Part shown: piece by piece, positions 1 to 16,492 of the stretch
How the letters are laid out: each line of letters begins with the position of its first letter
Numbering within the stretch: position 1 is the first letter of the stretch
Source: an uncultured Candidatus Saccharibacteria bacterium
Lineage (GTDB): Bacteria > Patescibacteriota > Minisyncoccia > UBA6257
NCBI GenBank assembly: GCA_964479005.1
Contig: CAYZJA010000001.1
Location: forward strand, 64,001-128,000
DNA length: 64,000 bases
Reading direction: 5' to 3'
Position numbers and translations under genes: made by a program
The notes under the pieces: model-generated
Databases searched by the model: none
Told to the model about the DNA's origin: nothing
Seen by the model: only the letters and a program-made list of their open reading frames with translations

Positions 1-311
1 GAGATGGTTATGTTTTAATTTTTAAACCAACATTACCTGATAAAAGCGGAGAAGTTAAAGGTAATGTAGATGCGGATTTAGTCTTACAAGCAATGGTTGA
101 TTATAAGAAATATGATAAAGCCGTAATTGTTACAAGCGACGGAGATTTTTATTCTTTAATTAAACATTTATACAAAAATAAAAAGCTTATATGTGTAATA
201 AGCCCATATGTCAAAACTTGTTCTGTTTTATTAAAAAAGACGGCAAAAGAGAAGATATTCTTTATGGCTAATTTAAGAAAAAAACTTGAATATAAAGAAA
301 AACACCGCTAA
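1..311 (+). CDS. NYN/LabA-like (PIN-like) domain protein, 5' end cut by window edge
   Basis: The frame is open from position 3. Motif GNVDADLVLQAM...VIVTSDGDF...LICVISP is typical of NYN nuclease domains. Confidence 0.5.
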   Translation, partial: DGYVLIFKPTLPDKSGEVKGNVDADLVLQAMVDYKKYDKAVIVTSDGDFYSLIKHLYKNKKLICVISPYVKTCSVLLKKTAKEKIFFMANLRKKLEYKEKHR

Positions 312-439
312 GGGACAAAACCCATAGAGGTGTTTTTCATGTGTATTCTGATTAAATTATAGCGAAAATACGCCCATTGTCAAGTACTACTTATTCACAA
401 GAGATTATTTAAAAATTAATAATTTATTAATGCAATAAA

Positions 440-1456
440 ATGAGTTTAAAAATAACTAAAATATTGTCTAAAAACTGGCTTTCTAATAAACAATGGGGGG
501 AGATTTTGCGTCAGAAAGATAAAACAAATTTTAAGGTAAAAATTGGTCATATTGATCCAAGGCGTCTTGCTGATCCTAATTTTATCAATCGCAGGGTTTT
601 TTCAGAAAGTAAAACCAAAGAAACGATTATAATTGGTTCAGAGCATCCACACGGTCCAAAGATATGGGAAAGAGCTCAGCAGGAAGCTTCAAAAATGGTG
701 GAAGAGTGCGCTCAAGCATTTGGGCAAGCAGATCTTATTCAGAAAGCGCAGGAATTGAAAGAGCAAAGTGGCGAGGCAATAAAAACCTTGAAACAAGATG
801 ATTTACTTGCTCCTGTATCAGAAAAATTTGATTATCATAGTTTTATTATCATTACAGAGTGTACTGATGAGAAAACAGCTAAACAAACCTTGGAAAACCG
901 TTATTTAGTGCCAACCCATGGTTTTTTAGATGCTCCTGTTCCAGGAATGAATATACCGGGAATGAGTGATAAAACTACTCTAAGAGAACTCTTAAAGACT
1001 GATATGATGAAGGATTATATAACCAAAGAACAGATTAAGGAGATGGAGAAAGCAATGGAGGAGGTAAAGGGTAAATTTCCCAAAGATGTTAAGATTCGCA
1101 AGGGGAAATATCAAGGATTTGATGTTGTATTTCTTGAAGGCAAGAATAAGAGTTCTGTTGTTTCTTACATTAAAGAAAGTAAAGACAGGAATAAGGTTTT
1201 TGATATGGTAAGAGCAGGACGTTTTATTGTGTCAGGCACTTTATTGCGAATAATTAATAGTTTTCCATTAGGAAGTACTCCTTGTGATTCTTTAACAAAA
1301 TTCAAAACAAAAACCACAACTTACGAAATAGGAGGAGAGACTTTCACTACTAAAGAGATTTATCCCATCAAAAGCACCCTTTCTAAGGAGGGTTATCTTT
1401 ATAAAGAAGAAGTTGATAAAATATTCAAATCTATTTTCTCGGCAATTAAAGGATAG
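440..1456 (+). CDS. hypothetical protein (338 aa)
   Basis: Long ORF with no recognisable conserved motif; part of the accessory island. Confidence 0.4.
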   Translation: MSLKITKILSKNWLSNKQWGEILRQKDKTNFKVKIGHIDPRRLADPNFINRRVFSESKTKETIIIGSEHPHGPKIWERAQQEASKMVEECAQAFGQADLIQKAQELKEQSGEAIKTLKQDDLLAPVSEKFDYHSFIIITECTDEKTAKQTLENRYLVPTHGFLDAPVPGMNIPGMSDKTTLRELLKTDMMKDYITKEQIKEMEKAMEEVKGKFPKDVKIRKGKYQGFDVVFLEGKNKSSVVSYIKESKDRNKVFDMVRAGRFIVSGTLLRIINSFPLGSTPCDSLTKFKTKTTTYEIGGETFTTKEIYPIKSTLSKEGYLYKEEVDKIFKSIFSAIKG

Positions 1457-1860
1457 ATTATTTTTTTTAAAGATAGTGAAAAATGCTATAATAAAATAAG
1501 GAGGAAAATTCAGTTCCTCCTTTACCTATAGATATTATTCGTAAATGGCGATGGAGAGAAAAACAAAAAGTTATACTTAAAATAAACGAAAAAAAGAAAA
1601 CAATTACTATCAGCGATTGGAAACCAAAGAGTTAATCTATTCTGTCATCCTGAAGTGAGGCGAGGAGATATTGTTTTAAAAACACGCTAATCGCTATAGT
1701 TTTTTTCAACAACATCTCCTCACCTTTAAACCTTTAAACCTTAACAATATAACAATTTAAAACCATGCCCCACCGTATTTAGGTGGTTTTTATTTATGGA
1801 TTTAAAATAAATATATGAAAAATCTTGATTAGCAATAAGAATAATTAATAAGCTAAATCA

Positions 1861-2976
1861 ATGGATAAAATAAGAAAAATTTTTATTGTTGTAGCAGGCG
1901 GTAATCCAGAGGCTCAAAAACACTTTGAAGATACAATTAAACGGAAAAGAACACTTAGGGAAGTTCGACAGTCTTTGCCTGCGTCAGAAATAGAAAATCT
2001 GAAGAATATTTATCATGATGCTGCATTTATTGTTTGGGGTTCTGTTCCAGGAAAAATGAATGAACCTCGATGGGAGAAAATGGATGTTGGTGATATTGTT
2101 TTAATTTACAATAAAGGATTTATAAAATTTATTGGTGAAGTTGCTGCGAAGGTACGCAATAAAGAATTAGCGCGTTATTTTTGGAAAGAAACAGAAGAGC
2201 GCAAAACTTGGGAATTAATGTATTTTATAGTTAACGATGAAAAAATTAATGTCCCTATAGAAGAGATTAATAAACTTTTCGGATTTAAGGAAAGATATAT
2301 ACCACGAGGATTTAATATGGTAAATGAAAAAGCCGTTATAGATTCTATGAAGAAGTACGGCGATATTCGAGGAGTATTAAAAACTTTAGAAAGAGGTCAA
2401 CGACTTATTCAAATTCCTGAGAAGCAAAATATTATCTACGAAGCTGAAGAAAAAATTAAACATGTTACTACAGAACATGATGAAATGCAGTGGCGTTTAA
2501 TTCATTTAGGAGGACTAGCAAAATGCGATATTTGGGTTCCTAAGAACGATCAAACGCATCAATATGAGGGACGTCGATTTAAGGATTTTGTTTTACCTGA
2601 ATTTCACCAGACATTAGATGTACCGCTTACAATAAAAAATATTGATGTAGTGTGGAAATTTGGACCTTATTCGATAAAATCAGCCTTTGAGATCGAACAT
2701 TCTACTCAAGTTTATTCCGGAATATTGCGTCTTTCAGATCTACGTGCAGCAAATCCAAATTCAAATTACCCGCTTTTTATAGTAGCTCCTGAGGAACGTA
2801 AAAGAAAGGTTTTTGATGAACTAAGGCGCCCAACTTTTTCGAGCCCATGTTTAAGATTAAATGAAGTAATTAAATTTTTAGGATATAAAACAATTAGAGA
2901 AATTGATAAATCTATAGAAGGTCAAAATGAATTTGATAGCAATGTTTTATTTTCTGCAGGAGAAAAAATAGTATAA
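1861..2976 (+). CDS. hypothetical protein; the C-terminal region has a nuclease-like D..ExE/K pattern (DVVW...FEIEHST)
   Basis: 371-aa ORF. The C-terminal segment resembles a PD-(D/E)xK-type core, but this is weak. Confidence 0.35.
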   Translation: MDKIRKIFIVVAGGNPEAQKHFEDTIKRKRTLREVRQSLPASEIENLKNIYHDAAFIVWGSVPGKMNEPRWEKMDVGDIVLIYNKGFIKFIGEVAAKVRNKELARYFWKETEERKTWELMYFIVNDEKINVPIEEINKLFGFKERYIPRGFNMVNEKAVIDSMKKYGDIRGVLKTLERGQRLIQIPEKQNIIYEAEEKIKHVTTEHDEMQWRLIHLGGLAKCDIWVPKNDQTHQYEGRRFKDFVLPEFHQTLDVPLTIKNIDVVWKFGPYSIKSAFEIEHSTQVYSGILRLSDLRAANPNSNYPLFIVAPEERKRKVFDELRRPTFSSPCLRLNEVIKFLGYKTIREIDKSIEGQNEFDSNVLFSAGEKIV

Positions 2977-3000
2977 TTTATAATGCTATTAAAGAAATTC

Positions 3001-3030
3001 AACCAAAAGGTTAAAAATTAATTAAAAAAT
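3001..3030 (+). promoter_or_regulatory. copy of the conserved upstream motif (aaccaaaaggttaaaaattaattaaaaaat)
   Basis: Ends directly at the ATG of the gene at 3031. Confidence 0.5.
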
Positions 3031-3906
3031 ATGAAAAGAATATTTTATATTATAGGTGGGATAATTGTTTTAATTATCATTATTATCACAAGTAGTGGAG
3101 GTAAAAGGAGTGGAATAAAATCAGAAGAACTCACCGCTGGAGTCATTGTTGGGGATAAATTATTGGTTGAAGAAGAAAAAACTTATTTAGTGACAAAAGT
3201 AATAGATGGAGATACTATTACTATAGAAGGTGGTGAGGTAATTCGTTATATTGGGATTGATACTCCTGAAACTGTTCATCCTTCAAAACCAGTGGAATGT
3301 TTTGGAAAAGAAGCTTCTAGTAAAAATAAAGAGTTAGTTGATGGGAAGAGGGTAAAATTAGGAAAAGATGTTTCGGAAACAGATAGATATGGACGTCTTC
3401 TTCGTTATGTTTGGGTTGGCGATATTTTTGTAAATGATTATCTTGTAAGGCAAGGTTATGCTTATGCTTATACATATCCTCCTGATGTAAAATATTCTGA
3501 ACAATTTGTTCAAGCCCAACAAGAGGCAAGAGAAAATAATAGGGGGCTATGGGAAGGTTGTCCAGTTACATCTACAGAATATCCTACTACAACCATAATA
3601 ACTCAAGTTGTACCACCAACTACGACAACTACAATAGTAGCCCCCACTACTACAACAACCACAATAGTAGCTCCTACCACTACAACAATCACAACATTGC
3701 CACCTACGACTACTACTGTACCTCCCACTACTACCATTACTTATTTTACCGAGGAAATAATTTGTTCTTATAATGCTTATAATTGTTCTAATTTTTCTAC
3801 TCATGCCGAAGCTCAAGAAGCCTATGAATTCTGCGGTGGAGTTAGTAATGATATCCATCGACTTGATAGAGATAAAGATGGACTAGCATGCGAAAGTTTA
3901 CCTTAG
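3031..3906 (+). CDS. membrane-anchored thermonuclease (SNase family) with a Thr/Pro-rich linker and C-terminal excalibur Ca-binding domain
   Basis: N-terminal TM helix. SNase core DGDTI...GIDTPE...RYGRLL...GLWE. TTTT(I)VAP repeats. C-terminal DRDKDGLACE excalibur motif. Confidence 0.8.
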   Translation: MKRIFYIIGGIIVLIIIIITSSGGKRSGIKSEELTAGVIVGDKLLVEEEKTYLVTKVIDGDTITIEGGEVIRYIGIDTPETVHPSKPVECFGKEASSKNKELVDGKRVKLGKDVSETDRYGRLLRYVWVGDIFVNDYLVRQGYAYAYTYPPDVKYSEQFVQAQQEARENNRGLWEGCPVTSTEYPTTTIITQVVPPTTTTTIVAPTTTTTTIVAPTTTTITTLPPTTTTVPPTTTITYFTEEIICSYNAYNCSNFSTHAEAQEAYEFCGGVSNDIHRLDRDKDGLACESLP

Positions 3907-3939
3907 AAGAATTTATGACTTATTCAAATTTAATTTTGT

Positions 3940-3970
3940 AAAACGTCAAAAATTAATTAAAAAATAAAAT
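3940..3970 (+). promoter_or_regulatory. copy of the conserved upstream motif (aaaacgtcaaaaattaattaaaaaataaaat)
   Basis: 1 nt upstream of the ATG at 3972. Confidence 0.5.
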
Positions 3971-3971
3971 T

Positions 3972-5807
3972 ATGGTGAAGGAAAAAGGGAAAAAGAAAGA
4001 ATATCCTAGTGAAACAGCTGTTCAGCTGATTCCTCATTTAAGCGAAGGCACATATACCACTTTTGCAAAAGCAGCAAAGGAATTGGTTATTAATGCATTC
4101 GATGCTAACGCATCGGAGATTCGTATAGATTTTGATAAAGATTTTTCAAGCCTTATATTACTTGATGACGGAGATGGGATGTCATCGAAGAAGTTCAAAA
4201 CAGAATTTCTCCGTATAGCGGGGTCAAAAAGACGGCTAGAATCTCAAAAGAGAAAATACAATAGACCGATGGTGGGAAGATTTGGAATAGGCTTTCTTTC
4301 TGTAGCGAGATTGTGTAAAACCGTTAAAGTTTATTCAAAAGAAAAAGGGAATAATTTTGGCATTGCTAGAGAAATACCCTTGGAGCATCTTTTTGATAAA
4401 GGTAATCAATTAAAGAATTTAAAGGAACAATATTATTTTTATTCTTTACCCGACTTTAGAGATGATAAAAAGAAAAGCTATACGAAAATAATCCTCAGCG
4501 GGCTCCGTCAGGATATTCAGGAAGACCTAAAGTCCGCAAAGAAATTCAAGAAAGTTTGGGGTAGGGTGGATGATCTTTGCGGAATTGAGAAATTTAAGTG
4601 GGAATTAGGCATACTCTCACCTGTGAAATATTTTAATAATTTTCCAGTGCACAGACTATCTAATAGTCAAATTGAACGAGCTAAACAAGAATTAGATAAA
4701 TTTAGTTTTAGAGTTTTTGTTAATAAAAATGAAATATTGAAACCAATTTGTTTAGGATACCATTATTTTACTAACGCTAAATGGGAATATCTTACTAAGG
4801 CTGTACCGAGAAATCATTGTGGTATTATCCCAATCATGTCTCCTCCGGGAGAAAAATTTAAATTTTATGGTTATATTTATAATCAAACTAAACAAATTCA
4901 GCCCTCTTCGCTTAGAGGTATTCTTTTGTGCATTAATCACATTGGCATAAAAGGCTACAGTAAGTCATTATTTGAATTTCCTAAAAACATAGGACCTATT
5001 CTTTCAGCAATTAGTGGAGAGATTTTTCTTGACCCTGCTTTCGAAGAAATACTGACTATTGATAAAGATGATTTTAAGGAAGACCATCCATTATTTAAGA
5101 ATTTAGCAGGTTATATTCATAATGCCATAGATGAAGTTGCTGCTAACTCTCGAAAAAGATCCAGTAGGATTAAAGCAAAAAAGAAGGAAGTTGCAAGAAT
5201 AAAAGACTTAGATCTTTCTTCGGAGGAAGTAAAACAAGCACAGAAGATTTTAGGCAAAAAAGAATTCAAACAAGAATATTTCCCGAATCCCGATATTTCA
5301 ATAAGAACAAATATCAAAAATTTAAAGACTCGAGTAAGAAATTTGGTCGGGAAGACCATAGACCAAGACGAGGCAAGCTATTTAATAGAATCTCTCGAAT
5401 GTTTTGAGGCGGATTGTTTCAGGGGGTCTATATTAATGGCATGGAATACAGGGATGTTTCGTATTCACCGAAAGATAGCAAAAAATATAGGGTTTGCTAA
5501 ATTTCAGAGCGAAATTATAAAGATGAGAACTTCATTACAAACACCACAAGCTCAAAAAAGCAGGCTGAAAAATTGTAATTGCTTAGATGATTTGAAGTAC
5601 TATAATGAAGAAATGATTTGTAGACTTTTGAAAAAAATTCAGTTAATGGACAGCATCACGGCGAAATTATTTTATGAAGTACTAATCAAGATAAGGCATT
5701 ATTGCGCACATCCTACTGGGCACAGAGCAACTGATGGAGAGGCTATTTTTATGATTCAGTCTGTCTTAGATAGAATTTTGAATAGTAATAGGTTTATTAT
5801 TAAATGA
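3972..5807 (+). CDS. GHKL-type ATPase (HATPase_c/MORC-like Bergerat fold) with a C-terminal HEPN-like domain
   Basis: N-box ELVINAFDA, DDGDGM (G1) and GRFGIGF (G2). The C-terminus carries IRHYCAHP, which matches the HEPN R[NH]xxxH motif. The stop overlaps the next start (ATGA). Confidence 0.55.
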   Translation: MVKEKGKKKEYPSETAVQLIPHLSEGTYTTFAKAAKELVINAFDANASEIRIDFDKDFSSLILLDDGDGMSSKKFKTEFLRIAGSKRRLESQKRKYNRPMVGRFGIGFLSVARLCKTVKVYSKEKGNNFGIAREIPLEHLFDKGNQLKNLKEQYYFYSLPDFRDDKKKSYTKIILSGLRQDIQEDLKSAKKFKKVWGRVDDLCGIEKFKWELGILSPVKYFNNFPVHRLSNSQIERAKQELDKFSFRVFVNKNEILKPICLGYHYFTNAKWEYLTKAVPRNHCGIIPIMSPPGEKFKFYGYIYNQTKQIQPSSLRGILLCINHIGIKGYSKSLFEFPKNIGPILSAISGEIFLDPAFEEILTIDKDDFKEDHPLFKNLAGYIHNAIDEVAANSRKRSSRIKAKKKEVARIKDLDLSSEEVKQAQKILGKKEFKQEYFPNPDISIRTNIKNLKTRVRNLVGKTIDQDEASYLIESLECFEADCFRGSILMAWNTGMFRIHRKIAKNIGFAKFQSEIIKMRTSLQTPQAQKSRLKNCNCLDDLKYYNEEMICRLLKKIQLMDSITAKLFYEVLIKIRHYCAHPTGHRATDGEAIFMIQSVLDRILNSNRFIIK

Positions 5808-6940
5808 CAAAAATCCTATTAGTAGAACCAAATTTTCCTATACCACCTAAAAGTAAAAATCATAGGGATTTTTTACCTATTGGATTATTAAAACTAGCAA
5901 ACTATCACAGAGGAAAGGGGGATAAAATTAAACTTGTTAGGGGAAATTATTATTTCCCCGATTTTTATCCCAGTCAGGTAAAAATAACTTCGCTTTTTAC
6001 ATATTGGTCTAATTATGTGTGGGAAAGTGTAAAATTCTACAAAGAAAACTATCCGAAAGCCAAAGTGATAGTTGGCGGCATTTATGCATCGTTAATGCCG
6101 GAGCATTGCAAAAAATCAGGTTGCGACGAAGTATTCATTGGAGTGGATAAGAACGCTGAAAAGTATGAACCAGCCTATGATTTGGTAAATGTAGATTACC
6201 AGATAATGCATACAAGCAGAGGTTGTATTAGAAGATGCAAGTTTTGCGGCACATGGAAGATAGAGCCGGAATTCAAATATAAAAAAAGCATAAAAGACGA
6301 GATTTGTAGCAATCGAATAATCTTTTATGATAATAATCTCTTAGCCAATCCTTATATAAAAAATATTTTTGAAGAGCTAAAGAATTCTAAATATAATGGC
6401 AGGGTTGTATATTCTGAAAGTCAATGTGGCATTGATGGTAGATTGCTTACGCCAAAACTAGCGAAATTGCTAAAACAAGCGAGATTTCTGAATCCGAGAA
6501 TTGCATGGGATCATAGTTATGGTCAGCGAAAAATGATAAAAAAACAAATTGATATGTTGGTAGATGTCGGTTATCCCGTTAAAGACATCTATATTTTCAT
6601 GATCTATAATTTTGAACAAGATTATTATGAAATGCTGAATAAACTTAGGCAATGCAAAAAATGGGGTGTCCAGATTGCGGATTGTAGATATCGACCCTTG
6701 GATCAAACTTTTGATAATTATAATCCTCGAATAAGCCAGACAAATAAAGATTATTATATTCATTCTAAATGGAGTGATAGGCAAATTAAACTTTTCAGAA
6801 AGAAAGTCAGACAACAGAATATTATGATAAGACATGGGTTTGATTTTTACAGTAAAGAGTTGGAAAGATTGGGGACGAAGAAAAGAAATAAAAAAAATAG
6901 TGTCAAATCTATCCTAAATAACCAAAAGGTCAAAAATTAA
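5804..6940 (+). CDS. radical SAM enzyme with an N-terminal B12-binding-like domain
   Basis: CIRRCKFC (CxxxCxxC) follows a Rossmann-like N-terminal domain (KILLVEP...LPIGLLKLANY). Start overlaps the upstream stop by 4 nt. Confidence 0.6.
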   Translation: MTKILLVEPNFPIPPKSKNHRDFLPIGLLKLANYHRGKGDKIKLVRGNYYFPDFYPSQVKITSLFTYWSNYVWESVKFYKENYPKAKVIVGGIYASLMPEHCKKSGCDEVFIGVDKNAEKYEPAYDLVNVDYQIMHTSRGCIRRCKFCGTWKIEPEFKYKKSIKDEICSNRIIFYDNNLLANPYIKNIFEELKNSKYNGRVVYSESQCGIDGRLLTPKLAKLLKQARFLNPRIAWDHSYGQRKMIKKQIDMLVDVGYPVKDIYIFMIYNFEQDYYEMLNKLRQCKKWGVQIADCRYRPLDQTFDNYNPRISQTNKDYYIHSKWSDRQIKLFRKKVRQQNIMIRHGFDFYSKELERLGTKKRNKKNSVKSILNNQKVKN

Positions 6941-6954
6941 TTGAAAAATAAAAA
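6921..6954 (+). promoter_or_regulatory. copy of the conserved upstream motif (aaccaaaaggtcaaaaattaattgaaaaataaaa)
   Basis: Overlaps the last codons of the radical SAM gene and lies 25 nt upstream of the ATG at 6980. Confidence 0.5.
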
Positions 6955-6979
6955 TTAGGAATAGAAGGCGGAAATTATT

Positions 6980-8296
6980 ATGGGAAAAGAAGAAACAAAA
7001 AAAGAAGAAATGAAACCATGTCCTTTATGTGGGACAATGCTTTTATATGATAAATGGTTACAAGTAGTAGGTGTATATGAAGAACAGCAGAAATATAAAA
7101 AACAATTGGAATTAGAATTAAGCAAAGCCAAAAAGCAAGAATTAAAGCTAAAAGAAGAATATAAAAAAATTCGTCAGAAAGAAAAAGAAATACGGACTCA
7201 GTACGCTCTTAAAAAATCAAAACTTAGCCAGCAGCATAAAACGCAATTAGAAAAACTCCAAAAAAGATTTGAAAAAGAAAAACGAAAAGTGCTGAATCAG
7301 GCTAAAAAGGAAGGCATTAAAATCGGTTTTGAGAAAGAACAAGCAAGATTAAAAAAGCTCAAACAACAACAAAAGAAGATCAAAAAGCAATTAGAAAGAC
7401 AAAAACAAATAGAATTAAAACGAATTTATCGTAAAGGAATTGGAATGGGGGAAGAAAAACAGAAAGCAAGAACAGAAAAAGTAAGTCTGATGGCTGAGAG
7501 ACGTCGTAAAGAAAGGGACAAAGCAATGGAGAAAGTAAAACAACTTGAGGAAATGATGAAACAAGGTACAACACCACAGATAGAAGGGTTTAATTTTGAG
7601 AAAGAGTTTGCTAAGCAACTCAAGCAAAAATTTCCAGAGGATGACATAAAGCCAACTGGACATAAGGGGGATATTATCCATACAGTTCAAGCAAAAGAGG
7701 AGAAAATTGGAAAAATTATCTATGAGTGCAAAAAAACTAAAGAATTCGAAAACAAATTTATTGAACAAATTCGACGAGATAAAACTAGAGTAATTGCAGA
7801 TTATGGAGTAATTGTTACTTGGACCACAAAAGAGAGTAAGCAGAATTTTTGGTTGGCGGGAGATATAATTATAGTTCATCCCTATGGGGCCTTAGATATA
7901 GCAACACTTCTCCGCGAAACACTGATACAAATGTATACACTTAAGTTATCAAGGGCAGAGTTTGAGACCAAGGGTAAAGCTATTCTTAAATTTATGCAAT
8001 CTGAGGAATTTAGAACAAGAATTCAAAATTCTATTGTTAAAAGCAGAGAAGCTTATGAATCTTTAAAGAAGGAGATTACAACGCATTTTAATACTTGGGA
8101 TAAGAGAGCCAAGATATACGAAAGTATCTATAAAAACACAAATATTATTCAGCGTACCGTTCAATACGTATTACTTTATAGTAAGATTCCTGAAAATTTA
8201 CCCGAAACAAAAGGACTTCCGCCACTCCAAATATTACCCAAAAAAGAATCAAAAGAGCAAGAAAAAGAGCAAAATGAACAAAACAGACAAAAATAA
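6980..8296 (+). CDS. coiled-coil protein with an N-terminal CxxC zinc ribbon and a C-terminal PD-(D/E)xK-like nuclease-fold domain (DUF2130-like architecture)
   Basis: CPLCGT near the N-terminus. About 180 aa of K/E-rich coiled coil. The C-terminus has GDIIH...IIYECKKT, a D...ExK pattern. Confidence 0.4.
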   Translation: MGKEETKKEEMKPCPLCGTMLLYDKWLQVVGVYEEQQKYKKQLELELSKAKKQELKLKEEYKKIRQKEKEIRTQYALKKSKLSQQHKTQLEKLQKRFEKEKRKVLNQAKKEGIKIGFEKEQARLKKLKQQQKKIKKQLERQKQIELKRIYRKGIGMGEEKQKARTEKVSLMAERRRKERDKAMEKVKQLEEMMKQGTTPQIEGFNFEKEFAKQLKQKFPEDDIKPTGHKGDIIHTVQAKEEKIGKIIYECKKTKEFENKFIEQIRRDKTRVIADYGVIVTWTTKESKQNFWLAGDIIIVHPYGALDIATLLRETLIQMYTLKLSRAEFETKGKAILKFMQSEEFRTRIQNSIVKSREAYESLKKEITTHFNTWDKRAKIYESIYKNTNIIQRTVQYVLLYSKIPENLPETKGLPPLQILPKKESKEQEKEQNEQNRQK

Positions 8297-8353
8297 CCAT
8301 TTTTTAGTATAAATTATCTATTTTAAATTTGTGGATTATATAATATTTGTGCC

Positions 8354-9310
8354 ATGGATGATTTATTTTTTCAAGACCAAAAAGACTATAATGAATTTAC
8401 AGTGTTTCAGGATGAAGCAGGATGTAAAGTCTCCAATTATTTTTATCATGGGTTTCTATTTATAGATAATAGATTTGGGAGAGAGATTCTTGATAGTTTA
8501 ATAAATATCAAAAAAGATGAGAATCATAGGTATACAGAAGTCCATTTTACAGATATTAAAGCTGGTAGTAATAAAGAATATGGATATAAGACAAAAATTG
8601 CTCTTGAATGGTTGAATCTAGCAAAAGGATGGTTGTTTAATAGAAAGATTAAATTTTATATTTTAGGAATTAATAAGAATAATTTAGGAAATTTTTGGAA
8701 TAATAATTGGCGATATGAAAAGAATATTTATTTACGATTTTTTGAATTAGGACTTAAGACATCTATGGGCTGGTTTGGGAATGATAAAAGGTTGATTAAA
8801 CCATTAAGAGCATCACATTTATTTTACGAATATGGAAAATATAATGATGACAGAAAGAATAAAGTAATTTGGTTAAGTAAATTCAATTTTGGAAATTTAT
8901 TAACTAATCAAAATATACAGCCAATTTTCTCTGATGAGAAAAAACAACAAAAACAAAATCCGCTACTTGCTGAATTCTCAAATTTAGACCAATTAACAGA
9001 TCTTATACTTGGCGTGACTAAATATAGTTTTATTAACATAAACCTAAAGCATATAGGAAAGCAGGAATGCATTGTTAGCTTTATTGATATAATAGAAAAA
9101 TTTAATAATCAAAAAACCGCTTTTAATACAAACGATGATTTTTATAAGAATTTTTGTCTTAGCTTTTTTCCTAAAAATGAGATAGATAAAAAAGATTTTT
9201 TGGAAAAGACTACAGATTACTATATTAAGACTATAGATAATTTTTACCCTGATAGATTTACATATAGGCAGCAATTAGCCAAAGACAAAAATTTAACACT
9301 TAATTTTTAA
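8354..9310 (+). CDS. hypothetical protein, possibly DUF3800-like
   Basis: N-terminal FTVFQDEAGCK...YFYHGFLFI resembles the DUF3800 DESG start motif. This is weak. Confidence 0.3.
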   Translation: MDDLFFQDQKDYNEFTVFQDEAGCKVSNYFYHGFLFIDNRFGREILDSLINIKKDENHRYTEVHFTDIKAGSNKEYGYKTKIALEWLNLAKGWLFNRKIKFYILGINKNNLGNFWNNNWRYEKNIYLRFFELGLKTSMGWFGNDKRLIKPLRASHLFYEYGKYNDDRKNKVIWLSKFNFGNLLTNQNIQPIFSDEKKQQKQNPLLAEFSNLDQLTDLILGVTKYSFININLKHIGKQECIVSFIDIIEKFNNQKTAFNTNDDFYKNFCLSFFPKNEIDKKDFLEKTTDYYIKTIDNFYPDRFTYRQQLAKDKNLTLNF

Positions 9311-9323
9311 AAACTGAACTTAG

Positions 9324-9356
9324 CAAAAGGTCAAAAATGAATTGAGAAATAATTTA
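9324..9356 (+). promoter_or_regulatory. degenerate copy of the conserved upstream motif (caaaaggtcaaaaatgaattgagaaataattta)
   Basis: 11 nt upstream of the ATG at 9368. Confidence 0.45.
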
Positions 9357-9367
9357 ATTATAAAAAT

Positions 9368-9958
9368 ATGCCAAGAAGAAAAACATTGCTTGATGAAATA
9401 TTTTATATATTAGAGAGAATTAGTGTTGTATATGTAATAGCATTATTTTTTATTTGGTTTTCTGACAAAGAATTATTTTTTAAATTATTAGGATGGGGAC
9501 TCGCAATATTAGGTATTTTAATCGCAATTGTAATATTTACGAAAAGATCGAAGATTCATAAACGAAGTCAATTTGATACTGATAGGGAGTTACAGAAATG
9601 GCTAGGTGATTTGAAGCATTGGGAATTTGAAAATTACATTGGAGATTTATTTAATAAATTAGGATATAAAACTCGGGTTATTGGTGGATCATATGATGAA
9701 GGAATTGACGTTATTGCTGAGAAAAACGGAATAAAACATTATATCCAATGCAAAAAATATAGTAATAGTGTTGGGGTGAAGGATGTGAGAGAATTTTATG
9801 GAGCTTTATCTGATAAATTATCTAATGATAAAGCCTTTTTTATCACCACTAATTTTTTTACTGAAGGAGCTGAAAGATTTGTCGAAGACAAACCAATTGA
9901 ATTAGTTGATGGTAATCAACTCGTTAAATACATTCGCCTTGCCGAAAAATCTAACTAA
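9368..9958 (+). CDS. membrane-anchored Mrr-cat type restriction endonuclease domain protein
   Basis: Two N-terminal TM helices. Mrr-cat core FENYIGDLF...DEGIDVIAE...IQCKKY...FFITT. Confidence 0.7.
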   Translation: MPRRKTLLDEIFYILERISVVYVIALFFIWFSDKELFFKLLGWGLAILGILIAIVIFTKRSKIHKRSQFDTDRELQKWLGDLKHWEFENYIGDLFNKLGYKTRVIGGSYDEGIDVIAEKNGIKHYIQCKKYSNSVGVKDVREFYGALSDKLSNDKAFFITTNFFTEGAERFVEDKPIELVDGNQLVKYIRLAEKSN

Positions 9959-9994
9959 AACGTCAAAAATTAATTGAAAAATGAAAAATAAAAT
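9957..9994 (+). promoter_or_regulatory. copy of the conserved upstream motif (aaaacgtcaaaaattaattgaaaaatgaaaaataaaat)
   Basis: Upstream of the gene at 10016. Confidence 0.5.
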
Positions 9995-10015
9995 TTAGTC
10001 CGAAGTTGGATAATT

Positions 10016-10588
10016 ATGTTTAAAAATCTTTTGCTAAAAAACAAATCATTAAAAATTTTAATACTCATTAATGCCGTTTTTTTACTTGGAGCCAGTATGT
10101 TTCCTCCAATTTTTGCTTTGTTTGTAGAAGAAATAGGGGGAAATGCCTTTACTGCAGGAAGTATTTGGGCAACCTTTGCTATTGGGACAGGATTTTTAAT
10201 GCTGATTATCAGTCGTTATGGTGACAAACTGAAAGAGAGAGAATATTTAGTAGCAGCAGGCTATATTTTTAGATGTTTGGCTTGGTTAGGTTACTTTTTT
10301 GTTAATGCGCTTTGGCAGTTATATTTCTTGCAATTAATATTGGCTTTGGGTGAATCTTTTGGAACTCCCGCGTTTCTGGGTATATATTCTGAGCATTTAG
10401 ACAAAGGAAGACATATAAGACAGTGGGGAGTTTATACTTCTTTTACTATAATTATCGGAGGAGTTGCCGCCTTTCTGGGAGGGGCAATAGTTTCTCAATT
10501 CGGATTTAGGGTTCTTTTTCTTGTAATGACCTCTTTATCTGCTTTAGCTTTTTTTCTTTTGATTATTCAGCCTCGAAAACTGCTCTAA
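10016..10588 (+). CDS. truncated MFS-transporter-like membrane protein (about 6 TM; possible gene fragment)
   Basis: 190 aa of TM helices resembling one half of an MFS transporter. Confidence 0.35.
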   Translation: MFKNLLLKNKSLKILILINAVFLLGASMFPPIFALFVEEIGGNAFTAGSIWATFAIGTGFLMLIISRYGDKLKEREYLVAAGYIFRCLAWLGYFFVNALWQLYFLQLILALGESFGTPAFLGIYSEHLDKGRHIRQWGVYTSFTIIIGGVAAFLGGAIVSQFGFRVLFLVMTSLSALAFFLLIIQPRKLL

Positions 10589-10660
10589 GGAAAAAGTCTG
10601 TCTTTTTTGGGCCATTCTTTCCTGGGCCATCAAATTTAGTTCGAAGTTGAGAAAATTTAA

Positions 10661-10692
10661 CCAAAAGGTCAAAAATTAATTGAAAATAAAAA
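10661..10692 (+). promoter_or_regulatory. copy of the conserved upstream motif (ccaaaaggtcaaaaattaattgaaaataaaaa)
   Basis: Immediately upstream of the ATG at 10693. Confidence 0.5.
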
Positions 10693-11019
10693 ATGATTAA
10701 AAAACATAATAAGTTAATTCGGGATAGAATTTTGGAAATTATTGAGGCAAATAAAGAGAAGTCTTATTTTCGGATTCTAAATAAAAAAGAATATATTAAA
10801 GAGATAAAGAAGAAAATATTAGAAGAAGCTAAAGAATTAATTGAAGCCAAAAGCAAAAAGGAAGTTATTAATGAAATTGTTGATATTCAAGAATTAATTG
10901 ATGTTTTGATATCTGAAAGTGGTTTAACAAAATTACAGATTCAAAAACAGCAAGAAGTAAAAAATAAAAAGCGAGGCGGATTTAAAAAGCGACTATTTTT
11001 AATAAAGACAAAAAATTAA
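10693..11019 (+). CDS. MazG/HisE-like all-alpha nucleotide pyrophosphohydrolase
   Basis: KLIRDRILEII...KILEEAKELIEA...DIQELIDVLI...KRGGFKKRLFL matches the PRA-PH/MazG-like small-protein pattern. Confidence 0.5.
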   Translation: MIKKHNKLIRDRILEIIEANKEKSYFRILNKKEYIKEIKKKILEEAKELIEAKSKKEVINEIVDIQELIDVLISESGLTKLQIQKQQEVKNKKRGGFKKRLFLIKTKN

Positions 11020-11089
11020 TCCTTCGACACGGTTCAGGACAAGTTGAGAAAAATAACTCAAAATTGAGAGGATTAAGAATTTTAGAAAT

Positions 11090-11875
11090 TTGATGAAAAT
11101 TAAGTTTATTAAAATCAAAGCAAAGCAAATTTTTACTAAAACTGGCATTCCAGGGGCAAAATGGGTCTTAAATCAGTATGTAGGATGTGAACATGCTTGT
11201 CCATATTGTTATGCTAAGTTTATGGGCAGATGGCGGCCGAAAAACTATGGAAAATGGGGAAACTGGGTTGAAGTAAAAGAAAATGCTTCTGAATTAGTAA
11301 AAGGCAAGTATGTAGATTCTTGGGTATATATGAGTTCTGTTTCTGATCCATACCAACCCATTGAAAAAAAATTAAAAATAACTCGTAAAGTTTTAGAAAA
11401 TTTAGATAAAAGAATTAAATTAGCTATTCTTACTAAGTCAGATTTAGTGTTACGAGATATAGATTTATTTAAGAAGTTTAAGAATATTGAGGTTGGGTTA
11501 ACTATAAATAGTTTTGATAGTTCTCTGAAGAAGGTTTTTGAGCCGTTTTCATCAAAAAACGAGGATAGAATAAAGGCTTTGAAAGTCCTTAAAGAGAATG
11601 GAATAAGAACTTATACTTTTATTAGCCCGATAATTCCTGGACTAATAAATTTAAAAGATGTAATTAGAAAAACTAAAAATTTGACTGATTATTATTGGTT
11701 CGAAATGATTAATATGAAACTAGCTGGTAGAGAATTTATCAAGATTTTGAGAAAAGAATCTCCCGAAAGTTTAGAAGTCGTTACTAATAAAAGGAAGTTT
11801 GAAAAGTTTGTAAAAGAATGTAAAAATATTATTAATTCAGAAGATATAAAGGTTAGAGGGATAGAGATTCACTAA
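11090..11875 (+). CDS. radical SAM protein, spore-photoproduct-lyase-like (COG1533 DNA repair photolyase family)
   Basis: GCEHACPYCYA is the CxxxCxxC motif in the SPL-like context. Confidence 0.5.
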   Translation: MMKIKFIKIKAKQIFTKTGIPGAKWVLNQYVGCEHACPYCYAKFMGRWRPKNYGKWGNWVEVKENASELVKGKYVDSWVYMSSVSDPYQPIEKKLKITRKVLENLDKRIKLAILTKSDLVLRDIDLFKKFKNIEVGLTINSFDSSLKKVFEPFSSKNEDRIKALKVLKENGIRTYTFISPIIPGLINLKDVIRKTKNLTDYYWFEMINMKLAGREFIKILRKESPESLEVVTNKRKFEKFVKECKNIINSEDIKVRGIEIH

Positions 11876-11905
11876 AGGGTCAAAAATTAATTGAAAAATA
11901 AAAAT
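11874..11905 (+). promoter_or_regulatory. copy of the conserved upstream motif (aaagggtcaaaaattaattgaaaaataaaaat)
   Basis: Ends at the ATG at 11906. Confidence 0.5.
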
Positions 11906-12358
11906 ATGGCAATAAAATGGAACAAGATCGATTTTGATTTAGTTAAACGTCTTAGAGGATTGGCTGAATTATCTTGTAATAATGGAGATTATATAGGGGC
12001 CTTTGTTCTTCAGATGCTATTTTTGGAGGGTACGTTAGTGTTCATAGTTAAGAATTTATTAAATCAAAAAAGGGTAGACAAGGAATTATCTAATAAATTT
12101 TCTCAAGGATACCCAACATTCGCTTCTCTTATGGATTATTTTTTTCTGTTGACAACGAATCACGATATATTTAATAAGTTAAGAGATGTAAATAAACGTA
12201 GAAATAAAATAATTCATAATATTTTTGAATTTGAAACTTTTGATGCTCTCCAGCAAGAATCGCGAGAACTGTATTTAGAATCGCGGAAACTAGAAGTTGA
12301 TTTAATAGGTCAATACCTTAGTAAGTTTTTGAAAAATAAAAAATTAATTGAAAAATAA
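11906..12358 (+). CDS. small helical HEPN-like protein
   Basis: KRRNKIIHN matches the RNxxxH HEPN motif. Start moved to the ATG at 11906; the ORF track used an upstream TTG. A paralogue lies at 63781. Confidence 0.4.
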   Translation: MAIKWNKIDFDLVKRLRGLAELSCNNGDYIGAFVLQMLFLEGTLVFIVKNLLNQKRVDKELSNKFSQGYPTFASLMDYFFLLTTNHDIFNKLRDVNKRRNKIIHNIFEFETFDALQQESRELYLESRKLEVDLIGQYLSKFLKNKKLIEK

Positions 12359-12362
12359 GATT
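12331..12362 (+). promoter_or_regulatory. copy of the conserved upstream motif embedded in the 3' end of the preceding CDS (gaaaaataaaaaattaattgaaaaataagatt)
   Basis: Ends at the ATG at 12363. Confidence 0.4.
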
Positions 12363-12935
12363 ATGGAGAGTAAAGCTTATATTAATTTTCGCGCTCAAGT
12401 ACATAAACAAAGCATAGATGTTTTAATGCGTATTTTCGGTGATTTAATATCTAAAAATATAAAAGATGTGACTTTAATTGTTTCTTCATCTGGTGGACAA
12501 GTTCAACCAGCTCTTGATTTTTATGATTTTGCAAAAGGATTACCAATAACTATCGCCACGTATACTATTGGACAGGTTGCTTCTGCGGCTATCGTAATCT
12601 ATTGTGTAGCTGAAAAGCGATATACGCATAGCCGAAGTAAATTCCTAATTCATGGTATTCGTGGGGATGTAAAAGGTTTCTCTATTAAGGATATGAAAGA
12701 AAAGATAATGCCAAATTTAACAGATCAAAGTAATAAGATTGCGGAAATTATTGCCGAAGCAACAAAAAAGAATAAATCAGATGTTGAAAAAGATATGACC
12801 GAAGAGAAAGAATTAAGTGCAGAAAAAGCGATCAAGTATGGTTTAGTTACCGCTAGTGTCGATGATCAACCCATTAAAATGATAGGAGATCCAGTAATAA
12901 CTATTGGTGATGATCTTTTCAAAGATAAACGATAG
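12363..12935 (+). CDS. ClpP-like serine peptidase (S14 family fold)
   Basis: SSSGGQV...TIGQVASAA...KFLIHGIRG retains the ClpP Ser and His positions. 4-nt gap to the upstream HEPN-like gene. Confidence 0.6.
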   Translation: MESKAYINFRAQVHKQSIDVLMRIFGDLISKNIKDVTLIVSSSGGQVQPALDFYDFAKGLPITIATYTIGQVASAAIVIYCVAEKRYTHSRSKFLIHGIRGDVKGFSIKDMKEKIMPNLTDQSNKIAEIIAEATKKNKSDVEKDMTEEKELSAEKAIKYGLVTASVDDQPIKMIGDPVITIGDDLFKDKR

Positions 12936-12967
12936 AAAAGCTAAAACAAGAGTCAATTTTATTTTTA

Positions 12968-12998
12968 ACAAAAGGTCAAAAATTAATTAATAAAAAAA
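12968..12998 (+). promoter_or_regulatory. copy of the conserved upstream motif (acaaaaggtcaaaaattaattaataaaaaaat)
   Basis: 1 nt upstream of the ATG at 13000. Confidence 0.5.
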
Positions 12999-12999
12999 T

Positions 13000-14259
13000 A
13001 TGTATAAAAAAATTATATTAATTGGAATAATATTTGTTTTGTTTGCAGGTATAGCTGTTGCTGCAGTATTGTTCCTTTTTCCTTATGAGCCAAATGAGCC
13101 ACCTCAAGCAGATAATACTGGTTCAACAGAACAAGGGATACAAGATGTAGTTAATGCAAATAATCAATTTGCTTTTGATCTTTATTCTGAATTAGATAAA
13201 TCTGAAGATGGAAATATGTTTTATTCTCCATACAGTATCTCTGCAGCTTTGGCAATGACTTATGAAGGCGCAGAAGGGCAGACAGCAGATGAAATAAAAT
13301 CAGTTTTTCATTTCCCAGAAGATAATATTTTAAGACCTAATTTTGCTGCTATTTATAATGATATTAATAAAGAAAATGGAGATTATGAGTTGAAAACCGG
13401 AAATGCTTTATGGGTTCAAAAAGATTATTCTTTTTTACAAGAATATATAAGCAGAGTTGAAAACTATTATGGCGGAAAAGCGGCAATTTTAGATTTTAAG
13501 AAAGAAACCGAAAAATCAAGGCAAACTATTAATAGTTTTATAGAAGAACAGACTAATGACAAAATTAAGGATTTAATTCCTAAAGGTTATCTTGATGAGA
13601 TGACAAGACTTGTTTTAACCAACGCAATCTATTTTAAAGGCATTTGGGAATGGGAATTTGATAAAGATGATACTCGTGACGGAATTTTTAGGATAACTCC
13701 TGATAATACTGTAGAGACTTCTATGATGCACATGAATCCTGAAGAGGCAAAATTTAATTATGCCGAAACAGAAGATTTGCAGATATTGGAATTACCATAC
13801 AAAGGTGACAAAATTTCAATGCTGATACTTTTGCCAACTGAAAATCTTGATGTAATAGAATCTTCTCTGACAACAGAAAAATTAAATGGATACAAATCTC
13901 AGATGAAAGAAACAAAACTAGATTCAATATCGCTTCCTAAATTTGAATTTGACACAAAATATTTTATGAAAGATACTTTGATTTCTTTAGGGATGCCAAC
14001 AGCTTTTTCAGAAAATGCTGATTTTTCTGGAATGACTGGCAAAAAGGATTTATTCATTAGTCATGTTATTCATCAAGCGTATGTTGGTGTTGACGAAGAG
14101 GGAACAGAAGCAGCTGCTGCAACTGCTGTGGTTATGACGATGTCAGCAGTTCTGCAAAGAAAAGTATTCAATGCGGATCATCCATTTATATTTCTAATAC
14201 AAGAGAAAGACACTGGAAATATTTTATTCTTCGGCAGAGTAGTTGATCCAACAAAATAA
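13000..14259 (+). CDS. serpin (serine protease inhibitor) with an N-terminal signal or TM anchor
   Basis: NQFAFDLY...MFYSPYSIS...NAIYFKGIWE. Reactive-centre loop EEGTEAAAATAV. C-terminal FNADHPFIFLI...ILFFGRV serpin signature. Confidence 0.85.
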   Translation: MYKKIILIGIIFVLFAGIAVAAVLFLFPYEPNEPPQADNTGSTEQGIQDVVNANNQFAFDLYSELDKSEDGNMFYSPYSISAALAMTYEGAEGQTADEIKSVFHFPEDNILRPNFAAIYNDINKENGDYELKTGNALWVQKDYSFLQEYISRVENYYGGKAAILDFKKETEKSRQTINSFIEEQTNDKIKDLIPKGYLDEMTRLVLTNAIYFKGIWEWEFDKDDTRDGIFRITPDNTVETSMMHMNPEEAKFNYAETEDLQILELPYKGDKISMLILLPTENLDVIESSLTTEKLNGYKSQMKETKLDSISLPKFEFDTKYFMKDTLISLGMPTAFSENADFSGMTGKKDLFISHVIHQAYVGVDEEGTEAAAATAVVMTMSAVLQRKVFNADHPFIFLIQEKDTGNILFFGRVVDPTK

Positions 14260-14340
14260 AGGAGAACTGTTCTCCTTTATTTTGTTAAGCAGAAATTAAT
14301 CCTTCGGCAAACTCAGGACAAATTAAAAAATAGAAAATAA

Positions 14341-14856
14341 ATGGTTAAATTAAATTTTGTTTATAAAAAAGAAGAATTATTGAAGATCTATAAAGCAGGA
14401 TGTGATGTCTGGAAAGTTCCTTTTGATTTAAAAGATTTTTTGCAAAACTATCCTGAAGGAGACGATACAAATATTCCTTTCTTTAGGGGGATGAATCGTG
14501 CTCATTTTGTTGAGCTTTGGAAAGAAAAAGAAGAGAATGTGATTACTGAGATTGGAAAGGTTTATAAGCCCTTCTCTGAAGGGGAAATTATTATTGGTTT
14601 ATTTCCGAGTAGAGATATTTTTTGGAAATTTGAGACACAGAAAAGTTATGCTATTCTGGGTCCTGATAAGAAGGCTTTAGTAGCTTTAGTTCCTGGTCCT
14701 GATCGTTTTAGATATTTAATTCATGAACTTTTTCATGCTAATAATGATTTGAGAATGGAAACAGGTTTAACCCCTATTAAAAAGCATCAATGGTTTGATG
14801 ATCAATCCCTGGAGATCGCAAAGAAATATTTTAAAATTTCTTTTAATAAATTATAA
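14341..14856 (+). CDS. hypothetical protein with an HExxH motif (possible small zinc metallopeptidase)
   Basis: LIHELFHAN. Confidence 0.3.
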   Translation: MVKLNFVYKKEELLKIYKAGCDVWKVPFDLKDFLQNYPEGDDTNIPFFRGMNRAHFVELWKEKEENVITEIGKVYKPFSEGEIIIGLFPSRDIFWKFETQKSYAILGPDKKALVALVPGPDRFRYLIHELFHANNDLRMETGLTPIKKHQWFDDQSLEIAKKYFKISFNKL

Positions 14857-14877
14857 AATCCTATCAAAGTCGAATTT

Positions 14878-14913
14878 CGTAAAAGGTCAAAAAAATAATT
14901 AAAAATAAGATTT
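14878..14913 (+). promoter_or_regulatory. copy of the conserved upstream motif (cgtaaaaggtcaaaaaaataattaaaaataagattt)
   Basis: Ends at the ATG at 14914. Confidence 0.5.
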
Positions 14914-15516: not shown

Positions 15517-15546
15517 AAAATTATAAAATTAGAATAAAAATTTAAA

Positions 15547-15580
15547 CTTCAAAAGATCAAAAATTAATTAAGAAAAATTT
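15547..15580 (+). promoter_or_regulatory. copy of the conserved upstream motif (cttcaaaagatcaaaaattaattaagaaaaattt)
   Basis: Ends at the ATG at 15581. Confidence 0.45.
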
Positions 15581-16441: not shown

Positions 16442-16457
16442 CTAATTGAAGTTTAAT

Positions 16458-16492
16458 TTCGTAAAAGGTCAAAAATTAATTGGGAATAAAAA
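16458..16492 (+). promoter_or_regulatory. copy of the conserved upstream motif (ttcgtaaaaggtcaaaaattaattgggaataaaaa)
   Basis: Ends at the ATG at 16493. Confidence 0.5.

Follow-up and report, generated by a model that had tools for sequence, protein, structure and literature searches.

How bacteria with very small genomes keep up and renew their defence repertoire is poorly understood in the Patescibacteria, whose tiny genomes mostly lack CRISPR. The question arises in concrete form in a 64,000-nucleotide stretch of DNA from an uncultured Candidatus Saccharibacteria bacterium (contig CAYZJA010000001.1, positions 64,001 to 128,000; hereafter, the window). A first-pass annotation had described positions 1–12935 of this window as a nuclease-dense accessory island of single-gene modules, lying on one strand and mostly sharing an upstream motif. 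What kind of locus is this, and what might the shared motif do? Our analysis indicates that positions 1–12935 very probably form the left half of a hypervariable island of accessory and defence genes, ~28 kb long, in a Patescibacteria chromosome (Paceibacteria/Nealsonbacteria-like). It occupies a recurrent insertion slot bounded by the genes for a P-type cation ATPase and a Na/Ca exchanger. The reading as a whole, in which this island carries a leader motif acting as promoter or operator and a GHKL-HEPN/radical SAM gene pair acting as a defence module, is given a probability of roughly 0.7. As an island, the locus adds to a kind already known; what stands out is the leader shared by unrelated cargo and the GHKL-HEPN operon coupled to a radical SAM gene.

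The window has a GC content of ~31%, nearly all of its genes lie on the plus strand and its GC skew is continuous. A bacterial RNase P RNA is encoded in it, as is, judging by the order and sizes of open reading frames (ORFs) only, an apparent str/S10/spc ribosomal cluster. A metagenomic contig (L001; other loci are numbered likewise) extends the region by 6,029 nt 5′ of window position 1. The synteny sample comprised 38 loci anchored on the flanking P-type ATPase and searched by tblastn with all proteins of the region; these relatives are Patescibacteria metagenome-assembled genomes labelled Paceibacterota, Nealsonbacteria, Minisyncoccales or Parcubacteria. The conserved right-flanking gene, encoding the Na/Ca exchanger (27318–28286, +), directly follows the ATPase in relatives. 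It lies 3–40 nt after the ATPase in eight of them; the gap amounts to 1–1.5 kb in another eight, one of which is the complete Nealsonbacteria genome CP179888, and to ~3 kb in two. In the present genome the same two genes are separated by ~28 kb.

Neither gene order nor gene content is kept within this slot, in agreement with the proposal that the region is accessory. In the closest relatives (ATPase 86–91% identical), only a 338 amino acid (aa) ORF and a 146-aa ORF located 5′ of the window recur, and loci L008, L128, L125 and L012 have just one or two modules in common with the window. Different cargo occupies the slot even where the ATPase is 81–90% identical: that of L008 is filled with genes for an N6_N4 methylase, DUF6996/6997, AIPR and an AHJR-like restriction endonuclease, and that of L128 with TspO, a complete type I restriction-modification (R-M) system (HsdM/S/R) and another Mrr. 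DNA homology of the shared modules stops at the module limits, running from 378/437 to 1446/1455 for the unit of the 338-aa protein and ending at ~400 for the NYN-domain gene. The 338-aa protein (440–1456, +) is 81–84% identical in L008 and L012, with homology limited to leader and ORF. Similarly, the NYN copy of L125 is 93% identical but is followed by different small ORFs, and the alignment of this locus with the window breaks just after CACAA at ~388. Module order is not conserved either: in L140 the ATP-cone gene (window 19423) is directly 5′ of the M23 peptidase gene (window 16493). The island border placed at 12935 in the first-pass annotation proved arbitrary, as the variable region spans from about −937, i.e. 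~0.9 kb 5′ of the window, to a point between 24.5 and 27.3 kb.

The island would be a mosaic of small transcription units exchanged independently of one another. They encode restriction-like and RNase-like nucleases, the GHKL-HEPN/radical SAM pair, RhuM-Fic and enzymes that are secreted or serve nucleotide house-cleaning, and some are fragments in decay. The description as single-gene modules fits most of this mosaic, with GHKL-HEPN and its radical SAM partner forming a two-gene unit. Defence-type matches from PADLOC and Pfam comprise REase_II, GHKL/REase_II, Mrr (PDC-S02, mREase_IV), NYN, PDC-S23 and a Cas4-like protein; PADLOC detected no complete named multi-gene defence system among the island genes. 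The density of nucleases holds for the left part, the right half of the island being mostly non-nuclease, and the suggestion of a competence function found no support, no com genes having been detected. The island also holds apparent products of decay, namely one half of an MFS transporter gene, a remnant resembling AbrB and a leader with no gene behind it.

Several points weigh against a simple defence island. Many of the cargo genes (serpin, aminotransferase, M23, SDR) are non-defence, and the defence labels, which rest on domain identity and context, designate candidate functions only. The position of the right border is uncertain, and the MgsA and acyltransferase genes at 24.9–26.8 kb may be relocated core genes. 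Moreover, the island bears no compositional mark of foreignness in GC or codon usage. Its GC fraction is 0.319/0.322 versus 0.325, GC at third codon positions (GC3) is likewise undistinguished from the ribosomal/core part, and the distance in relative synonymous codon usage is 0.050/0.033 versus a null of 0.042±0.008. The comparison with the ribosomal cluster recommended at the outset was therefore uninformative here, showing no difference.

The second part of the question concerns the upstream motif, which is 35–40 nt long, has the form …AACCAAAAGGTCAAAAATTAATTGAAAAATAAAA…ATG and fronts about half of the island units. Its consensus reads (A)AATTTAACCAAAAGGTCAAAAATTAATTGA(A/G)AAATAAAA, with an invariant core TCAAAAATTAATT; the GG of AAGGTC varies freely. 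For the 17-mer core AAGGTCAAAAATTAATT there are 17 matches at up to three mismatches, all on the plus strand, against 3.3 expected, and none of 100 shuffles reached 17. Repeat finding together with a sequence-only covariance model defined 14 full copies of ~36–39 nt between 2996 and 20166, again all on the plus strand, and the same model gave none in 24–64 kb or on the minus strand. Partial or degenerate copies are seen at 389, 12339, 18185, 21900 and ~24835. That most units of 1–12935 share the motif is borne out, as 8 of the ~12 transcription units have a full copy and a further 2 a partial or degenerate one.

The degenerate copy at 389–440 (+, repeat family D6) coincides with the synteny breakpoint between the NYN gene and the next module. 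The full copies begin at 2996–3031, where the ATG is 7 nt after TTAATT, and at 3931–3968, before the GHKL-HEPN/radical SAM operon; only one copy is present per operon, with none between these two genes. The copy at 6915–6952 overlaps the radical SAM stop codon, that at 9948–9984 begins at the stop codon of the Mrr gene, and that at 16454–16491 precedes the M23 gene. Further copies, located with the sequence model, are at 9317–9352, 10654–10691, 11867–11902, 12962–12998 (before the serpin gene), 14873–14908, 15544–15578, 17486–17520 and 20131–20166, the last clear copy. An ‘empty’ copy at 18538–18573 is followed by a terminator hairpin only. The stretch 18538–18855 as a whole comprises this copy, the strong bidirectional hairpin (18576–18601) and a 78-aa membrane ORF on the minus strand, one of the rare genes in that orientation.

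The motif is set close to the start codon. Across 39 copies from the window and relatives, the distance from TTAATT to the ATG is 7–16 nt in 23, with a mode of 11–13 nt, and the motif leaders of the window itself show no Shine-Dalgarno sequence. The TTG starts listed at 11891, 12348 and 18194 fall inside the motif (…AATTG). Translation probably begins at the following ATG in each case (11906, 12363 and 18209); the HEPN-like and ClpP-like genes then lose their apparent overlap of 11 nt. A second shared 5′ element (TTAATCCTTCGRCA…CAGGACAA) was observed at ~11030–11075 and ~14290–14325; it fronts the SPL-like radical SAM gene (11090) and the gene at 14341, the two units of the stretch that are without the main motif.

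Exact scans of metagenome and viral contigs with the 17-mer, a short and AT-rich pattern, returned mostly single chance matches, and the useful relatives came from a re-scan of the fetched loci for multiple copies on one strand. The motif occurs in at least nine loci of close relatives with 1–8 copies each, always on the gene strand among the matches listed. The genes that follow it there encode T5orf172, S49 peptidase, Fic, transglutaminase, NUDIX, oxidoreductase, methyltransferase, HNH, Mrr, GmrSD and YgjP-like proteins. The sequence model found no copy in ~20 relatives whose ATPase is at most 66% identical. Tandem or empty copies are present in L058 (230, 288), L125 (1691), L164 (2175) and, as described above, the window (18538). 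Locus L227 has a GHKL-HEPN/radical SAM pair (75%/82% identical; 36% GC) without the motif, and the M23 gene of L140 is likewise without it, whereas the window copy has one. The motif therefore does not travel with the gene across lineages. Orthologous M23 peptidases (window 16493–16660 versus L140 5749–5930) share 76% identity from residue 57 onwards, with an unrelated N-terminus (signal/transmembrane segment) and unrelated upstream DNA, which speaks for an exchange of 5′ ends as whole units.

What the motif does was approached by comparison with known elements. Core genes in 27–58 kb never carry the motif; their promoters are canonical TTGACA/TATAAT or extended −10. Judging from sequence, we put about even odds on the motif being a portable promoter and/or operator that gives rise to leaderless or very short-leader mRNAs. 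It is possibly a non-canonical promoter with a −10 element only (TTG-AGAAAT), combined with an operator for a lineage-specific factor. Transcription would begin at or beside the ATG, and newly acquired genes would thereby be plugged into the host expression or regulatory circuit, resulting in regulon-like control of accessory genes. Several observations speak against a promoter. In 16 of the 39 copies the next ATG is 19–77 nt away; the consensus scan for a σ70 −35/−10 pair did not select the motif; a promoter would not usually have a conserved core as long as ~30 nt; and the island yielded no identifiable regulator gene. Furthermore, the island of L008, the closest relative, has just one or two copies, so that the motif is not obligatory in the slot. 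The σ70 promoter and terminator scan found promoter-like sites to be no commoner than in shuffled sequences. A role at the level of RNA was rejected, as many copies break the single possible hairpin (ACC…GGT) with no compensating change and no Rfam family matched positions 1–27500 at E ≤ 1. Extracytoplasmic-function sigma factor (ECF), σH, σ54 and Bacteroidetes-type promoters, dif/Xer sites and DNA-uptake sequences were considered by eye and set aside, their spacing, symmetry or strand distribution being unsuited.

The same arrangement could conceivably reflect gene capture, with the motif as the recombination site of an integron-like cassette platform whose site-specific recombinase is encoded elsewhere. 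The units are co-oriented, mostly single genes and functionally unrelated, with near-identical junction sequences; synteny with close relatives breaks at motif copies; tandem and empty copies exist; and the motif comes from the lineage and not from the donor, as if sites were regenerated on insertion. Species-specific homogeneous junctions are typical of chromosomal super-integron attC arrays, which the motif junctions recall. We nonetheless consider a recombination site unlikely. No tyrosine or serine recombinase or transposase domain is encoded between the ATPase and the exchanger (an enzyme supplied in trans could act here), and the motif has neither an Rfam match at the above threshold nor the paired inverted repeats of attC, as judged without an attC covariance model, its short hairpin often being broken. 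It is phased to the downstream ATG (11–13 nt) and not to the upstream stop codon, and modules devoid of it (ATP-cone, the 338-aa protein, most of the L008 island) are shuffled equally. A more far-reaching proposal unites both functions in an undescribed cassette platform. The motif would then be a portable plug for leaderless expression under one dedicated factor and also a recognition or homology site for capture, swap or deletion of genes without an integrase in cis, an integron analogue for ultra-small genomes, with GHKL-HEPN and the B12-like radical SAM as a new widespread nucleic-acid-modification defence family. In this full form the proposal is doubtful.

Evidence already given bears on three other explanations of the island. 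It is hardly credible that the region is ordinary core genome and the motif simply the organism's usual promoter or ribosome-binding context: although GC, GC3 and codon usage match the ribosomal/core part, the island lies on the same strand as the core genes around it and GC skew runs on without a break, the two flanking genes are neighbours in relatives, no island gene apart from that of the 338-aa protein was found within 10 kb 3′ of the ATPase in the 38 loci, and core genes of the window use canonical promoters in place of the motif. An integrated mobile element, be it a prophage remnant, an integrative and conjugative or mobilizable element (ICE/IME) or a phage-inducible island, is very improbable as well. 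The ClpP-like peptidase does resemble prohead proteases (NCBIfam Clp_rel_HeadMat 1.3e-13), distant homologues of the radical SAM protein occur in a temperate phage and in plasmids/ICEs, and RhuM-Fic genes are typical of islands. However, domain searches of every ORF from L001:5093 to window 27317 recovered neither an integrase nor a transposase; there are no terminase, capsid, relaxase or type IV secretion system genes, no tRNA at the island border and no flanking direct repeats; the 17-mer occurs in viral contigs only as single matches at chance level; and the cargo differs piecemeal between relatives and not en bloc. Patescibacteria generally lack nucleotide synthesis, and the SNase-Excalibur protein, His phosphatase, two MazG-like enzymes, ATP-cone, M23 peptidase and serpin could accordingly be taken as a nucleotide-scavenging or competence island that feeds a nucleotide-auxotrophic episymbiont. 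This explanation is quite unlikely, since it covers only a subset of the genes, DNA-uptake genes are missing, and the intracellular nucleases of restriction type (NmeDI-like, Mrr), HEPN and RhuM-Fic, together with the R-M and abortive infection (Abi) cargo of relatives, point to functions in conflict. The hypervariable accessory/defence island, with the motif as a putative promoter or operator, remains our preferred reading.

Among its modules is the two-gene operon. The first gene (3972–5807, +) encodes a GHKL ATPase, sacsin/paraMORC-like, with a C-terminal HEPN domain (Pfam AF_1680) and an invariant Rx4H motif; the second (5804–6940, +), whose start overlaps the preceding stop by 4 nt, encodes a radical SAM protein with an N-terminal domain resembling B12-binding domains. 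The pairing proposed in the first-pass annotation is upheld by profile matches (HATPase_c_3 4e-17; AF_1680 HEPN) and by conservation of the radical SAM gene as the next gene. A sequence search of the PDB matches the GHKL domain to MutL and Hsp90 N-domains over the ATPase domain only, and a HEPN fold with conserved Rx4H is found at the C-terminus. The protein is not a member of Ymh (PF09509): Pfam assigns AF_1680 (PF27235), and PF09509 appears in one remote match (P0054) only. In the radical SAM protein, C141, C145 and C148 (CxxxCxxC) are invariant, with a Pfam score below cut-off. Its fold resembles TsrM, RimO, MgmA, NifB and viperin, and the PDB sequence search gave no match to it.

The 611-aa GHKL-HEPN protein has ~36 full-length relatives of 42–91% identity, and in all four of the contexts examined a radical SAM homologue (82, 53, 37 and 36% identity) is the next gene. 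Neighbours of the pair include a type III R-M system with a DEAD/MZB helicase, an MmeI/Eco57I-type (type IIG) enzyme with HEPN-MNT and PemK, and HicB. One pair has housekeeping neighbours only, which shows that it inserts as a unit. The radical SAM family is much larger, with 2,495 matches. The best 120 of these 2,495 are 68–88% identical and include records from Zixibacteria, Nanoarchaeota, Elusimicrobiota, Atribacterota, Velamenicoccus, Ignavibacteria and Bacteroidota. In four further contexts (among L231–L236) the radical SAM gene is last and overlaps its predecessor by 4 nt, with varying partners. These are a GHKL protein (~550 aa) and a 335-aa PP_RS20740-like protein beside type I R-M/TIR or PIN/NucS; ParB_N, SNF2 and ParB-like proteins; or ParB_N and an HD-like protein on an element with TraG. 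More remote homologues occur in a helicase-ParB-DGQHR-radical SAM-ATPase-PIN operon on Rhizobium plasmids and in Marinitoga camini virus 1, beside an annotated HerA helicase and a Rad50/Mre11-associated single-stranded exonuclease. PADLOC v2 has no match for the radical SAM protein. No published description of its pairing with GHKL-HEPN was found within a limited coverage of the literature, which leaves novelty unproven.

From domain content and neighbourhood, the operon could be a self-contained mobile conflict (defence) module, a reading that we regard as evenly poised. The radical SAM enzyme would modify a nucleic acid or nucleotide, or make a small molecule, and the ATP-gated HEPN RNase would act as effector.

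The remaining genes of 1–12935 complete the picture of mixed cargo. The segment holds 13 complete non-nested ORFs and a cut NYN gene, and every non-nested ORF of at least 100 aa is on the plus strand and placed as first annotated. Profile and fold searches agreed with the domain assignments apart from DUF3800, the HEPN-like call at 11891–12358 being weak. The NYN-domain (RNase-like) gene is represented by its 3′ part (1–311, +). The full gene, for a protein of 166 aa, starts 190 nt 5′ of the window and corresponds to L001 5840–6340 (Pfam NYN; PADLOC NYN 1.3e-9); positions 93–311 encode the C-terminal 72 aa, and this fragment alone is recognized as NYN with E 2e-4. After this gene, a perfect σ70 consensus promoter on the minus strand (356–383, TTGACA-16-TATAAT) is aimed into a bidirectional terminator hairpin (306–345). 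It is kept in L125 and L008, and may direct the synthesis of a tiny antisense RNA.

Three members had been left without an assignable function, and for two of them this stands. The 338-aa protein has no Pfam, NCBIfam or PADLOC match, and the orphan 318-aa protein (8354–9310, +), for which DUF3800 had been suggested, matches no Pfam family at E ≤ 5 (PF12686 included) and belongs to a 45-member family in which no homologue (0/45) has a Pfam domain. The third (1861–2976, +) is a homologue of NmeDI_C-like type II restriction endonucleases (PF27126 NmeDI_C; PADLOC REase_II 1.7e-9), with no adjoining methyltransferase gene. Upstream of it, at 1500–1636 (+), a small AbrB/MazE-like ORF (…VPPLPIDIIRKWRWREKQKVILKINEKKKTITISDWKPKS*) follows a strong AAGGAGG but lacks a start codon in the present genome; its 90% identical counterpart in L008 (17639–17747) is just 5′ of a DNA methylase gene. 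This remnant was probably once the antitoxin or regulator of an R-M or toxin-antitoxin module, now lost, beside the orphan NmeDI-like nuclease.

The SNase called as secreted (3031–3906, +) indeed combines SNase (2.8e-26) and Excalibur Ca-binding (3.3e-6) domains with an N-terminal transmembrane segment and a Thr/Pro linker, and is predicted to be membrane-anchored or secreted. The gene at 6980–8296 (+) encodes a Zn-ribbon, a long coiled coil and DUF2130 (2e-25) with a visible D…ExK motif. The membrane Mrr-cat endonuclease (9368–9958, +; type IV restriction-like) was likewise recovered, with Mrr_cat (Pfam 3e-31; PADLOC PDC-S02 2e-20, mREase_IV) positioned after predicted transmembrane helices. 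The N-terminal half of an MFS transporter (10016–10588, +; Pfam) is truncated and bounded by a 19-nt direct repeat, AAATTTAGTYCGAAGTTG, with copies at 9986–10015, 3′ of a leader motif, and 10618–10650, 5′ of the next; these may be an insertion scar.

The small MazG/HisE-like NTP pyrophosphohydrolase (10693–11019, +) matches PRA-PH at 2.8e-6, as anticipated. The SPL-like radical SAM protein (11090–11875, +) belongs to that superfamily (Radical_SAM 7e-17). The assignment is at the level of the superfamily only, the nearest NCBIfam entries being rSAM_mob_pairB/PA0069 and spore photoproduct lyase (4e-7), all below cut-off, and it is placed here in an SPL/PA0069/‘mobile pair B’ group. The small helical protein at 11906–12358 (+) has the RxxxxH motif of a HEPN candidate and matches HEPN_Cthe2314 at E 0.005, below cut-off. 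The ClpP-like serine peptidase (12363–12935, +; CLP_protease 1.8e-23), identified correctly from the start, has the partial motif at 12339 upstream. A full-length serpin (Pfam 4e-122), unusual for the phylum, is encoded directly after it (the two genes together spanning 12363–14259), and the two may form a protease/inhibitor pairing or be neighbours by coincidence.

The island continues on the plus strand from 13000 to 24489 with the serpin, a protein labelled unknown, a Ser hydrolase, an aminotransferase IV, the M23 peptidase, a His phosphatase, MazG, ATP-cone, DUF6485, EncFtn-like, DUF3175, RhuM-Fic (PADLOC PDC-S23, 2e-122), SDR, DUF3307, Cas4-like PD-(D/E)XK and Germane proteins. Close to the right flank (26985–27285, +), a TTGACA…TAACAT that resembles a promoter leads into 276 nt of strongly structured sequence (minimum free energy −77 kcal/mol, z −6.2). 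This sequence closes with a GC-rich terminator immediately 5′ of the exchanger's own promoter. Rfam gives nothing for it at E ≤ 1 and the fetched loci contain no homologue; it is a candidate small RNA without an assigned family. On the other side, L008 has an extra block of ~9.4 kb (386–9950) between the ferredoxin and ATPase genes, which are ~0.8 kb apart in the present genome, a second variable slot, so that the neighbourhood has several.

The locus thus offers a bordered hotspot in which turnover can be tracked gene by gene, and it suggests that foreign genes are domesticated through a common leader element. Should the motif be a promoter/operator, it would define a regulon of accessory genes, probably with leaderless expression, in an uncultivated lineage; should it be a recombination site, it would represent a new mechanism of gene capture. 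The GHKL-HEPN/radical SAM operon, the conserved radical SAM protein of which is common to operons containing ParB, SNF2 and HD proteins, is a candidate for a new family of defence systems.

Genomic islands with R-M systems have been reported in Patescibacteria (PMC12455944), and the present locus resembles known defence islands and hotspots in its fixed slot between conserved genes, its turnover of cargo between close relatives and its enrichment in restriction-type, Abi-like and toxin-like genes, accompanied by non-defence cargo and pseudogenes. It differs from the usual case in having no integrase or tRNA, no compositional signature, and one long lineage-specific leader on unrelated units. 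With integron and super-integron arrays it shares co-oriented, mostly single genes that are unrelated and often without an assigned function, near-identical species-specific junctions and empty junctions. Unlike in integrons, the element is 5′ of the start codon and phased to it, attC-type repeats are absent, no IntI was found, and modules without the motif are exchanged. The closest parallel for one regulatory motif upstream of several unrelated acquired defence systems in one lineage is the regulon of DdaA, a WYL regulator of Moraxellaceae (PMC12392091). The DdaA site, however, is a 15-nt palindrome, scattered over the genome and beside normal promoters, whereas the motif described here is ~35 nt long, non-palindromic, clustered in one island and phased to the ATG, with no regulator identified.

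For the operon, the nearest precedent is the paraMORC GHKL ATPase-HEPN (Ymh) protein of R-M neighbourhoods, proposed as an analogue of PrrC (Anantharaman et al. 2013, PMC3710099). The N-terminal GHKL ATPase and C-terminal HEPN fold are common to both and to eukaryotic sacsin, and the Rx4H motif and R-M or toxin-antitoxin neighbours are shared with paraMORC-HEPN. In contrast, the HEPN domain here is AF_1680 and not Ymh, and the gene is always coupled translationally to that of a B12-like radical SAM protein. Radical SAM proteins in small mobile operons within defence neighbourhoods are also known from prokaryotic viperins, from the Ophion anti-phage system (radical SAM, PHP and PRTase; bioRxiv 10.1101/2025.09.30.679545) and from the anti-phage system HXS (PMC13128918). 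The pair is neither Ophion nor HXS, which are different systems. It is distinguished from all three by the B12-binding-like N-terminal domain, with TsrM, RimO and MgmA as nearest folds, and by its partners, which are GHKL-HEPN here and, elsewhere, GHKL with the 335-aa protein, ParB/DGQHR-like, SNF2 and HD proteins.

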